A stretch of 5,753 bases of DNA from a virus (IMGVR_UViG_3300045988_011356); one strand, 5' to 3'. Positions 423-5,753 are shown, counted from the first letter of the stretch. A program made the numbers and translations. Notes: generated from the sequence alone by a model not told the origin.

Positions 423-553
423 GTTTTTTTAGAATTTTAATTGATATGTCAGTAGCCGGCTTTGCTCCTTTGTTTTGAATGGCGCTTTAGCGCCTTGCCG
501 TGCGTAGCGTATGCGGAGCTCGGCTAATCCGTTCCTTGTAAGCGCTGTGCGCG

Positions 554-720
554 TTTTCAACACTTTCAACACTTTCAACAGGTTTTCAACATAAAGTTGC
601 ACAATGATTTTAGTCATTTTGACGAACTTTCAACAATTCAACAAGTTTTCAACAAAACTTTCAACAGTGTTTTTTGCTTTTTATTTACGCTTTATCGTTA
701 AATTTTCGTACTTTTCAACT
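554..720. repeat. Iteron-like array: 8 exact TTCAACA heptamers plus 1 TTCAACT variant, all in the same orientation, in two clusters of four
   Basis: TTCAACA starts at 556, 565, 574 and 585 (spacing 9, 9, 11), and at 629, 637, 648 and 660 (spacing 8, 11, 12). TTCAACT starts at 714. The longer consensus is (A/T)CTTTCAACA, which reads TGTTGAAAG on the coding strand. I found no other exact copy elsewhere in the window by eye. Confidence 0.9.
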
Positions 721-766
721 TTTCTACTGCCTCTACTACTACTCCTACAACAAGTTATATATTATA

Positions 767-798
767 CGGCGCTTGTGAGCTTGCGAACAATAGCGCCG
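767..798. repeat. GC-rich inverted repeat (hairpin in ssDNA)
   Basis: CGGCGCT (767..773) pairs with AGCGCCG (792..798). An inner TTGT/ACAA pairing is possible if 2 nt are bulged. Confidence 0.7.
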
Positions 799-803
799 AA
801 GAG

Positions 804-847
804 CCGCGCGCGCGCGCGTGCGCGCTTCGCGCGCGCGCACGCGCGCG
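804..847. repeat. Alternating (CG)n tract containing a perfect 15-bp palindrome
   Basis: CGCGCGCGTGCGCGC (811..825) is the exact reverse complement of GCGCGCACGCGCGCG (833..847). The loop is ttcgcgc (826..832). The single T819/A839 pair fixes the register. Purine-pyrimidine alternation runs 805..825 and 828..847. Confidence 0.95.
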
Positions 848-902
848 ATAAAGTATAGCTATTTGATAGACTGAATAGTTTGATACATGGAGTCTTTAGA
901 CG

Positions 903-2876: not shown

Positions 2877-4523
2877 TTACAGTTTGTACAAGCCAGGTAC
2901 GCTGTATAACGGCATACGTCTTGTGGTTTTGTTTGCTACGCGGATTGCACCGAAAAATTGTGGCTCGTTTTGCACGATAAGTGTGCGTGCAATTTCTGCT
3001 TTTCCTTCTTCCATCCAGTCTTGCGACAGTGTCGGTACGGTTGAATATTTGTCAGCATAATGCCAAAAATCCAGTGTTCCGGTTGCGTTGCTTCGCATTT
3101 TACTGGACACCCGGTTAGGCTTCATGCGATAGTCTGCCCATGCTTCTTGATATCCGAACGTTTCTTCGTCTGTTTCCTTGCCGGTGAGCATGATTTCTTT
3201 CTTTTTTACGGGCTGCTCGCCTAGGTTTGCGAACTGCGGTACGTAATAGTCAAGCCTGTCGGTTCTGCTCCAGAAACGTTCCAAACCTTGCTGATAACTG
3301 CGATTGTGTCGTACACAACATACACCGATGATAAATCCGTGCTCTTCAAAAGACTTTGTAAAGCTGCTTTCGTTGATTGGCGTTACTGACATTGCACCGG
3401 TTTCGCCTATGGGCGTGTCGTTATTTGTCTGCTGTCCGCTTGTTTGCACGATCTGATTGATATTGATGTGGTACCTGCCGCCGCCAAGGTATTCCGGCAC
3501 CTGTACGGTTTTATCGCTGATAACCACGTCCCACAGTGCTTGTACCTGTTCACGGTAACGGCTGCCACCTCTTGCAAGTGCTTCGTAGTACTGCTGTACT
3601 GCTACGGCTTTTCTTAGGTCGTTGATGGTTGCTGCGGTTACAGAACTGAGGTCAGTTCCCATATACCCCGCTTTATTGCTGCCCATTACCGTAGCTGGCT
3701 TTTTTCCGTCTATTGCCACTGTATTAAAAATTTCTCCGTTTGTACTTAATTCCACAGTATACGATTCCGGCTGCTCTTCATTTAGTTTGTCGTCTTTATA
3801 CAGTTTCACTGCCGCGTTTCCTTCCATCGGCAGTGACACAACCGGCCCACGCTGAGGATAAGGCAGACACGATGTGAAGTAGTCATGGAATTTATTTACG
3901 GGAAGGCATCTGCCGCCGGTAATTGCTTCCTTTAGAATTGCTTCAATTTTTTCATCGTTCTTGCTGTCTGCGTATGTTACGCTGCTATCGTCTTTTTTGA
4001 ATACTGCAGCGTTATCTATGTTTTCGTCTCTGAAAAATTCGTTCCAGATCATGACATATGCTCGAATTGGTAAGGCATTCACTGAAAAATTTGCTTCTAT
4101 TTTTGTTGGCACGCCCATATAGTCTAGGATGCTTCCTTCTGCTGGGCTTGGCGTTTTGGTTGCTGTGTTTCCCCCTACGATGTTAATTTGTGGTACATGA
4201 TAGTTTTTGGTCGGCATCCATGGCGTTTCCTCTACTTCTCCCATGAAGTATTTGAAGTTGTCCCATAGAATCCGGTTAGGACAATAGAAATAGTAGAAGT
4301 CAATGAATGCATCGTCAAAAACAGGATACTTCGGAGTTGTCATTCGAATGATTGCTGACGTGTCTACGTTGAAGGTATCGCCCGGTAATACCTCATCAAC
4401 ATAGAATGGAATCAGCTTGCCGGAATCGAATGTTGTTAAAATTGTCTGGTCACGGTTAAACCGTGTACGGCTCGCTTTCATTTCCGGAATCTGGTTAAAG
4501 TGCCGTTCATTGTTTCGATTCAC
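2877..4523 (-). CDS. VP1: Major capsid protein VP1 (phiX174 F analogue, gokushovirus type)
   Basis: 548-aa ORF. The N-terminal pattern HFNQIPE..SRTRFNRDQTILTTFDSGKLIPFYVDEVLPGDTF...FYCPNRILWDNF is characteristic of Microviridae VP1. The start is GTG (4523..4521), 7 nt after AGGAGG, and it overlaps the VP3 stop as GTGA. Confidence 0.96.
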   Translation of the reverse strand: MNRNNERHFNQIPEMKASRTRFNRDQTILTTFDSGKLIPFYVDEVLPGDTFNVDTSAIIRMTTPKYPVFDDAFIDFYYFYCPNRILWDNFKYFMGEVEETPWMPTKNYHVPQINIVGGNTATKTPSPAEGSILDYMGVPTKIEANFSVNALPIRAYVMIWNEFFRDENIDNAAVFKKDDSSVTYADSKNDEKIEAILKEAITGGRCLPVNKFHDYFTSCLPYPQRGPVVSLPMEGNAAVKLYKDDKLNEEQPESYTVELSTNGEIFNTVAIDGKKPATVMGSNKAGYMGTDLSSVTAATINDLRKAVAVQQYYEALARGGSRYREQVQALWDVVISDKTVQVPEYLGGGRYHININQIVQTSGQQTNNDTPIGETGAMSVTPINESSFTKSFEEHGFIIGVCCVRHNRSYQQGLERFWSRTDRLDYYVPQFANLGEQPVKKKEIMLTGKETDEETFGYQEAWADYRMKPNRVSSKMRSNATGTLDFWHYADKYSTVPTLSQDWMEEGKAEIARTLIVQNEPQFFGAIRVANKTTRRMPLYSVPGLYKL

Positions 4524-5641: not shown

Positions 5642-5753
5642 TTACACCCCCTTTCTATATTTTTTTTCGCGTACGTCTATATGCGTAAAGTTTGTGTATC
5701 TGATTACGCCGCCTTCTTCCATAATTTTGCTTGCGTATTCTGCTACCTCTTTG
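5642..5753 (-). CDS. 3' end of the same M15 peptidase gene, containing the true stop codon; 5659..5753 duplicates 1..95
   Basis: Minus strand reads ...THIDVREKKYRKGV-TAA with the stop at 5644..5642. The reading frame is continuous with 1..367 once the 95-nt overlap is collapsed: 367 + 17 nt = 128 codons. Confidence 0.9.
   Translation of the reverse strand, partial: KEVAEYASKIMEEGGVIRYTNFTHIDVREKKYRKGV
5659..5753. repeat. Terminal direct repeat, copy 2 (identical to 1..95)
   Basis: See copy 1. Confidence 0.95.

Follow-up and report, generated by a model that had tools for sequence, protein, structure and literature searches.

A conserved array of putative DnaA boxes and DnaA-trio-like triplets in the non-coding region of a gut gokushovirus

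Genome organisation

The window analysed here is the whole 5,753-nt sequence IMGVR_UViG_3300045988_011356. It carries a terminal direct repeat of 95 nt (positions 1-95 are identical to 5659-5753), indicating a circular genome of 5658 nt, and all of its genes are located on the minus strand. They code for the rolling-circle Rep protein VP4 (959-1978), VP2 (1975-2838), the VP1 capsid protein (2877-4523), a scaffold protein, ORF5, several small ORFs, and a peptidase M15, the gene of which wraps across the junction and extends to position 367. VP4 contains a rolling-circle Rep domain (Pfam PF23343). The window represents a gokushovirus of the 'human gut gokushovirus' group, and its nearest GenBank records, KX513868 and MG945514, are 84% identical to it over 92% of the genome.

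The only long non-coding region, which houses the repeats described below, occupies 368-958 (591 nt) between the VP4 stop codon and the promoter of the peptidase gene. This promoter, TTGACT-17-TACAAT, is found on the minus strand at 422-394, and together with the strong Shine-Dalgarno sites of the genome it is consistent with a Firmicutes-type host. Between the promoter and the repeats lies a conserved GC-rich block (470-553) comprising GGCGCTTTAGCGCC, GCCGTGCG..GCTCGGCTAATCC and AGCGCTGTGCGCG; its predicted fold is not significant (z about -1.7), and it could serve as an origin of the complementary strand. A CS-6 motif of the ssoA type, TAGCGT, at 505-510 was considered as a single-strand origin signal and rejected, since relatives have GAGCG or GAGCT. 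The Rfam scan of the window returned two sub-threshold snoRNA matches only, which were taken as chance. Nor is the array explained by coding: the ORFs at 429-617 (minus) and 604-858 (plus) have no Pfam match, and the distances between repeats (8, 9, 11 and 12 nt) do not keep a reading frame.

The window as a whole has a strongly asymmetric A/T distribution, with 37.8% T and 18.9% A on the plus strand, and with 38% A and 17% T at third codon positions of the coding strand. The coding strand of Chp2 is balanced in this respect and that of phiMH2K is similarly A-rich, so that strand composition, considered as a pointer to the packaged strand, was uninformative.

The repeat array

The non-coding region contains eight exact copies of TTCAACA, starting at 556, 565, 574, 585, 629, 637, 648 and 660 (span 556-666), all on the plus strand and none on the minus strand, and a near copy, TTCAACT, at 714-720. 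The first-pass annotation had described these repeats as a single-orientation array beyond chance expectation with a spacing close to one helical turn, and the present analysis agrees: shuffled sequences held on average 1.13 copies genome-wide, with a maximum of 5, and eight or more copies were seen in none of 200 shuffles, while start-to-start distances are 9, 9 and 11 nt in the first cluster and 8, 11 and 12 nt in the second. The repeat unit itself required correction, being a 9-mer, yTTTCAACA, and not a heptamer, and the conserved unit reaches to about position 767, past the interval of 554-720 annotated before.

Cluster 1 (554-591, plus strand) consists of four exact DnaA-box-like 9-mers, namely TTTTCAACA (554-562), CTTTCAACA (563-571 and 572-580) and again TTTTCAACA (583-591). 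In relatives the fourth of these boxes often reads TTTTCCACA, which matches the relaxed DnaA-box consensus given in PMC7561715, TTWTNCACA, at every position. Cluster 2 (627-666, plus strand) likewise contains four DnaA-box-like 9-mers: CTTTCAACA (627-635), AATTCAACA (635-643, at an offset of 8 nt), TTTTCAACA (646-654) and CTTTCAACA (658-666).

The spacer between the clusters (592-626) holds two elements that had been proposed to mark a nick site, an inverted repeat AATGA/TCATT (603-607/614-618) and a phiX174-like 9-mer, CAACTTTAT, on the minus strand at 599-591. Both are present, but neither is retained in evolution. The hairpin at 603-618 folds weakly, at -3.9 kcal/mol (z = -2.0), which 11 of 200 shuffled sequences matched; more distant relatives have unrelated sequence at this place, and close relatives have CAACATTTT instead of the 9-mer. 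The spacer sequence as a whole is not kept in relatives with a VP4 less than 60% identical.

The box-triplet unit at 712-766

Two further boxes, TTTTCAACT (712-720) and TTTTCTACT (720-728), lie in tandem on the plus strand downstream of the second cluster, overlapping by one base and thus offset by 8 nt. They are separated by a 4-nt spacer, GCCT (729-732, plus strand), from a block of DnaA-trio-like triplets at 733-747, which reads CTA CTA CTA CTC CTA on the plus strand and carries 3'-GAT-5' on the minus strand. The block is followed by CAACAAGTT (748-756) and the AT-rich ATATATTATA (757-766), a candidate unwinding region. Apart from the promoter area, 752-766 is the only stretch of the non-coding region in which at least 14 of 15 positions are A or T; this AT-rich part is short, about 13-15 bp, and very GC-rich DNA lies beyond it.

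This arrangement was compared with the experimentally defined DnaA basal unwinding system (BUS) at incC of the Bacillus subtilis oriC, which comprises boxes #6 and #7, a GC spacer, DnaA-trios and an AT-rich element (Richardson 2016/2019; Pelliciari 2021; PMC8287927). The oligonucleotides used for the B. subtilis system (supplement of PMC8287927) read TTATCCACA, AATCCACA, GGCC and CTA CTA TTA CTT CTA CTA (triplets CTACTATTACTTCTACTA), and positions 712-747 of the phage plus strand read TTTTCAACT, TTTCTACT, GCCT and CTACTACTACTCCTA. The two agree in strand, in the order of elements, in the 8-nt offset of the tandem boxes (#6/#7, TTATCCACAAATCCACA), in the length of the 4-nt spacer, in the 3'-GAT-5' triplets on the opposite strand and in the presence of more co-oriented boxes upstream; next to the triplets the phage has AT-rich DNA as a candidate counterpart of the AT-rich element. 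They differ in that the phage unit resides in a 5.7-kb ssDNA phage and not beside dnaA, its boxes are of the TTTTCAACA type, which deviates at positions 3 and 6 from canonical TTATCCACA, GC palindromes flank its short AT-rich part, and CAACAAGTT follows the triplets. The trio CACCTACTACTATTACTACTATGA of Clostridioides difficile (PMC7561715) has the same form as the phage triplets.

A BUS is defined as having at least one box, usually a co-oriented tandem pair, with no more than two mismatches to the motif of the species (PMC8287927). Relative to the host-type motif TTTTCAACA, the boxes at 712-720 and 720-728 have one and two mismatches, respectively, and relative to canonical TTATCCACA three each, so that they fall within this limit for the host-type motif only; both end in T and not in A. 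In relatives these proximal boxes are TTTTCAACT or TTATCAACT, followed by TTTCCACA or TTTCCACT, and the variants TTATCAACT and TTTTCCACA found there have two mismatches and one mismatch to the canonical box. The box-triplet spacer is 4 nt long in the 64 alignable modules, against a permitted maximum of 16 bp from the located box and a usual length of about 4 bp behind the second box, and is less GC-rich than bacterial ones. At least three triplets with a central A are present on the strand opposite the boxes, 3'-GAT-5' being nearest to the box. By location the unit is not a member of the class, as it lies between VP4 and the peptidase M15 gene and not next to dnaA in a chromosome origin. The element is thus BUS-like but outside a chromosome, and judging by its sequence it would work like a BUS without belonging to an oriC. 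A box with at most two mismatches followed by (CTA)3 within 16 nt occurred in 5 of 10,000 shuffled strands of this genome.

Conservation among microviruses

Relatives were collected as 52 GenBank microvirus records matched by the non-coding region and 80 IMG/VR loci found through VP4. The box-plus-triplet unit was detected in 86 of 96 related loci. Most of the remaining loci do not extend far enough to cover the region, and in at least one (L051) the criterion missed a variant of the unit. The array is present in essentially all relatives whose sequence includes the region. Alignment of 16 regions showed that the best-conserved non-coding stretch is 712-766, CTTTTCAACTTTTCCAC-nnnn-CTACTACTACTnCTACAACAAGTTATATA, and not the spacer between the clusters. 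Among 79 distinct modules, conservation amounts to 95% at box positions, 81% at positions between boxes and 96% in the triplet block. At triplets 1-3 and 5, CTA was read in 57-60 of the 64 alignable modules; the fourth triplet is variable. Relatives have between 2 and 6 CTA units, and triplet changes come as whole CTA units.

In order to extend this comparison, IMG/VR was scanned for tandem boxes plus (CTA)3, which yielded at least 120 contigs, nearly all of microvirus size (4-6 kb). In 52 of the 119 listed contigs with a VP4 match the protein is less than 60% identical, yet these contigs have a median of 9 boxes with the same core. Six of the collected loci (L004, L009, L011, L012, L014 and L015) possess the module although their VP4 is 45-55% identical, and for module-bearing viruses overall VP4 identity to this one spans 40-99%. 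IMG/VR scans with canonical TTATCCACA and (CTA)3 (89 matches) or (CTA)5 (119 matches) returned, as their only microvirus, one already in the set. Neither the array nor the triplet unit was present in the two gokushoviruses Chp2 and phiMH2K, which argues that the module is an acquisition of this gut group and not a general gokushovirus trait.

The 9-nt element after the triplets, CAACAAGTT (CAA CAA GTT, 748-756), is nearly invariant in the phages (59-61 of 64 modules) and is absent from the host origin units described below. It is probably a phage-specific signal, perhaps one for VP4.

The whole module, about 215 bp, is inverted in seven of the 86 loci (L006, L033, L036, L038, L072, L073 and L077) and in 3 of 119 loci of a second sample. 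The inversion is relative to VP4 and the CTTGATAG hairpin that adjoins it, and the inverted modules sit between the same flanks, with AGCGCTGTGCGCG to the left and, to the right, a GC palindrome or hairpin; the inversion may be mediated by short runs of alternating CG/TG on either side. In the window the left GC-rich boundary, AGCGCTGTGCGCG, is at 541-553 and is the element that stays fixed while the module inverts in the seven loci. The right boundary in many relatives corresponds to a palindrome at 805-847 (-30.2 kcal/mol), 43 nt consisting solely of alternating CG/CA steps and prone to form Z-DNA or a cruciform; most relatives have such a palindrome with a differing sequence. As few modules are inverted, the orientation appears to be strongly preferred but not obligatory, and a strictly strand-specific role is hard to hold. 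In one 8781-nt contig (L023, IMGVR_UViG_3300045988_086966) the box module is missing, and unrelated coding DNA takes its place beside VP4 and the CTTGATAG hairpin; the contig is either an assembly chimera or a recombinant.

Match to bacterial chromosome origins

A scan of 185,579 species genomes for three copies of TTCAACA 1-5 nt apart revealed at least 120 loci. Four of them are located in the rpmH-dnaA-array-dnaN region, with DnaA and the beta clamp identified on either side by Pfam: CAKSDC010000015 (L120, Oscillospiraceae), CAMWQJ010000019 (L137, Ruminococcus), JBJEQS010000047 (L169, Oscillospiraceae) and OMZF01000029 (L142, Clostridiales). These origin loci have 10-24 exact copies of TTCAACA each and code for no microvirus proteins. 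The 9-mer of the phage dominates the dnaA-dnaN spacer of all four Oscillospirales/Clostridiales genomes, and TTCAACA and TTTCAAC are the most frequent 7-mers of the four host spacers and of the phage non-coding region alike.

The resemblance extends to the details of the arrangement. The phage box pair TTTCAACAGGTTTTCAACA is identical to pairs at the oriC loci L169, L137 and L120. Position 6 of the box is A in 0.84 and C in 0.12 of 916 phage boxes versus 0.82 and 0.11 in the host, an agreement that is partly by construction because both matrices were gathered with the same seed. Boxes are spaced 8-12 nt apart in the phage and 9-11 nt in the host. The host loci end in units such as TTTTCAACAGTTTCAACACCCC(CTA)5AACATATATAC, with (CTA)5 in L120 and L137, and so share with the phage the series box, box, 4 nt, (CTA)n and AT-rich DNA, the 4-nt spacer being CCCC or TACC in hosts. 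Unlike the phage array of about 10 boxes in one orientation, the host spacers measure 0.3-1.3 kb and contain boxes in both orientations, and their tandem boxes are offset by 9 nt, as against 8 nt in the phage.

The complement of TTTTCAACA is listed as a species-specific DnaA-box motif in a DoriC-derived table (PMC8287927). The recognition helix of the host DnaA reads RDHSTIVY (L137, 5092-6477; also L120, L142 and L169), compared with RDHTTVIH in B. subtilis. The changes correspond to T435S and H439Y in E. coli numbering; T435 and H439 of E. coli are among the base-specific DnaA contacts listed in PMC7561715, and substitutions at base-contacting positions fit a variant box. This T435S/H439Y helix accompanies origins filled with TTTTCAACA rather than TTATCCACA.

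Most of the bacterial loci, which number at least 120, are not at dnaA, and therefore the motif alone is not diagnostic of an origin; other matches in the same bacterial families are small intergenic box clusters. Apart from the four origin loci, more than 100 of the triple-TTCAACA arrays (L096-L215) occur in other bacteria, many of them in Bacteroidales/Bacteroidota and Saprospiraceae MAGs. A box-box-(CTA)4 unit occurs in one Mesoaciditoga locus (L211), and among the Stappiaceae contigs some have large tandem satellites; coding repeats or satellites make up some of the arrays. A recent capture of host origin DNA was considered and rejected, as blastn of the phage non-coding region against the bacterial loci gave motif-level matches of 17-30 nt only.

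A conserved hairpin after VP4

A hairpin separate from the box array, with a 12-bp stem and the loop CTTGATAG, is located at 908-939 directly after the VP4 stop codon. It has a predicted energy of -12.3 kcal/mol (z -5.9/-7.5), shows compensatory changes in 5 of 12 pairs and resembles an intrinsic terminator on the minus (coding) strand. The loop is invariant across VP4 identities of 45-93% and contains the core ACTTGATA at 921-928. The sequence GTGACAC is found nearby, at 945-951.

The origin of phiX174 is a 30-bp sequence inside gene A, CAACTTG/ATATTAATAAC, and VP4 is a homologue of its protein A. CTTG/ATA is the nick core common to phiX174 and plasmids of the pC194 type; in the present genome it is found in the loop, on the strand complementary to the genes. 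The likeness to the phiX174 origin consists in this ACTTGATA core; the differences are its strand and the distance of about 240 bp between loop and array. The 9-mer at 591-599 varies among relatives and does not constitute a conserved CAACTTG/ATA-like site. On sequence grounds the hairpin at 908-939 is a candidate VP4 nick site and/or terminator, and a better nick candidate than 603-618.

Interpretation of the module

The first-pass annotation regarded the array as a replication origin or protein-binding platform, in which VP4 would bind iterons around a nick-site hairpin. The general idea of an origin or binding platform is borne out insofar as the array is non-random, conserved and part of an origin-like unit; the mechanism of VP4 iterons, central hairpin and phiX174-like nick site is not. 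The repeat core remains constant while VP4 falls to 40-55% identity, the same 9-mer fills chromosome origins, the array ends in a box-box-spacer-CTA-triplet unit matching the B. subtilis unwinding system, and the central hairpin is weak and, like the 9-mer beside it, unconserved.

The TTCAACA repeats are probably DnaA boxes, and the protein that binds them is likely to be host DnaA and not VP4. The motif alone suggests gut Oscillospirales (Ruminococcus/Oscillospiraceae) as probable hosts. That the repeats and triplets together function as an unwinding or origin module is somewhat less certain, though it is the reading we favour. In this model the eight boxes at 554-666, the pair at 712-728, the spacer, the triplets and the AT-rich DNA to 766 would represent a copied chromosome-origin core. 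From motif identity, geometry and conservation we infer the following course. On the double-stranded replicative form, host DnaA-ATP would occupy the co-oriented boxes and, starting at the proximal pair, oligomerise along the coding strand over its 3'-GAT-5' triplets, and the AT-rich DNA at about 750-766 would then be opened. Through this opening the host helicase could be loaded to copy the replicative form, or the nickase VP4 could gain access to single-stranded DNA; in either case phage replication would be coupled to the initiation potential of the host. The incoming ssDNA would be no substrate for the module, since the boxes have to be double-stranded and cannot pair with one another.

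The main rival explanation also has the boxes bind host DnaA, but as a sink without origin firing: a high-copy replicative form with about 10 boxes per molecule would soak up DnaA, and could thereby shut down initiation on the host chromosome or tune phage expression in the manner of datA or the DnaA-box clusters of B. subtilis. All of the motif evidence is shared by this explanation, small box clusters away from oriC occur in the same bacterial families, and the occasional inversion of the module suits a role independent of orientation. Since boxes alone would suffice for a sink, the exact succession of box, box, 4 nt, triplets and AT-rich DNA is left unexplained, as are the near-invariant triplets 1-3 and 5, and we consider a pure sink unlikely. 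A different initiator, the HUH endonuclease VP4 itself, would be the ligand if the repeats were iterons with nicking at or near the central hairpin. VP4 does have the Rep domain PF23343, direct repeats by an origin are generally typical for Rep proteins, and the invariant CAACAAGTT at 748-756 shows a phage-specific signal adjoining the array. Iterons specific to a Rep would be expected to drift with it, whereas the core here is unchanged from 40% to 99% VP4 identity; the same repeat fills host chromosome origins that have no VP4, and the conserved stem-loop lies at 908-939, away from the weak hairpin at 603-618 and the unconserved CAACTTTAT. Binding by VP4 is consequently improbable.

The repeats could alternatively be sites of another host protein, a transcription factor binding direct repeats spaced by about one helical turn, for instance Spo0A (TGTCGAA) or a response regulator of the OmpR/PhoP/WalR type, controlling the promoter at 394-422. 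On the coding strand, the TTGACT-17-TACAAT promoter has the array 130-270 bp upstream of it, and TGTTGAA is one base from the Spo0A box. The base that Spo0A requires at the variable position is found in 4% of the 916 phage boxes, and Spo0A boxes were rejected on these base frequencies; for any transcription factor the triplet unit and the match to the dnaA-dnaN spacer are left unexplained, and we regard this explanation as very improbable. It is still harder to credit that the module is captured host origin DNA with no present function. Identity with host origins is confined to runs of 17-30 nt, which shows only that any capture is old, and a functionless relic does not account for a module kept across 40-99% VP4 identity, with boxes conserved above spacers and triplets changing by whole CTA units.

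Comparison with known replicons and implications

The favoured interpretation, a DnaA-dependent unwinding module, has partial parallels among mobile replicons. The P1 oriR, F, pSC101 and RK2 encode their own initiators and recruit host DnaA through boxes in their origins, as the phage would, but they replicate in theta mode, with one or a few canonical boxes next to their Rep iterons. We know of none among them with a DnaA-trio unit, and none is a rolling-circle ssDNA phage. Direct repeats beside the origin are also typical of the Rep proteins of CRESS-DNA viruses, geminiviruses and plasmids of the pT181/pC194 type. The phage resembles these HUH origins of iterons and stem-loop in that its genome is small and circular, encodes a Rep and has short direct repeats in non-coding DNA, and differs from them in that its repeats are constant across Reps, have no conserved hairpin adjoining and are identical with the host DnaA box. 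DnaA is not known to be needed by rolling-circle phages such as phiX174.

The searchable full-text literature on Microviridae, gokushoviruses and ssDNA phages in connection with DnaA, DnaA boxes, DnaA-trios or oriC yielded no account of a module of this kind. Both DnaA boxes at the origins of plasmids and phages and the chromosomal unwinding system are known already; what appears to be new is a chromosome-type box-plus-trio unit in a rolling-circle ssDNA phage. The comparison also documents the DnaA-box variant TTTTCAACA, which goes with the T435S/H439Y helix in these bacteria.

No replication origin has been defined for gokushoviruses, and few hosts are known for those of the gut, abundant as they are. 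If the interpretation is correct, an ssDNA rolling-circle phage contains a chromosome-type unwinding unit of DnaA boxes and DnaA-trios, the origin question would be reduced to simple experiments, and Oscillospirales would be predicted from sequence as hosts for at least 120 uncultured microvirus genomes. More tentatively, and on balance with some doubt, a large group of gokushoviruses of the human and animal gut may bear a working host DnaA origin core, so that their replicative form would be opened by DnaA and possibly be replicated like a mini-chromosome, with coupling to the host cell cycle and plasmid-like persistence. This would contrast with the view of the family as dependent solely on its own rolling-circle nickase, and would offer 'lytic' gut microviruses a way to sense the growth state of the host or to persist.
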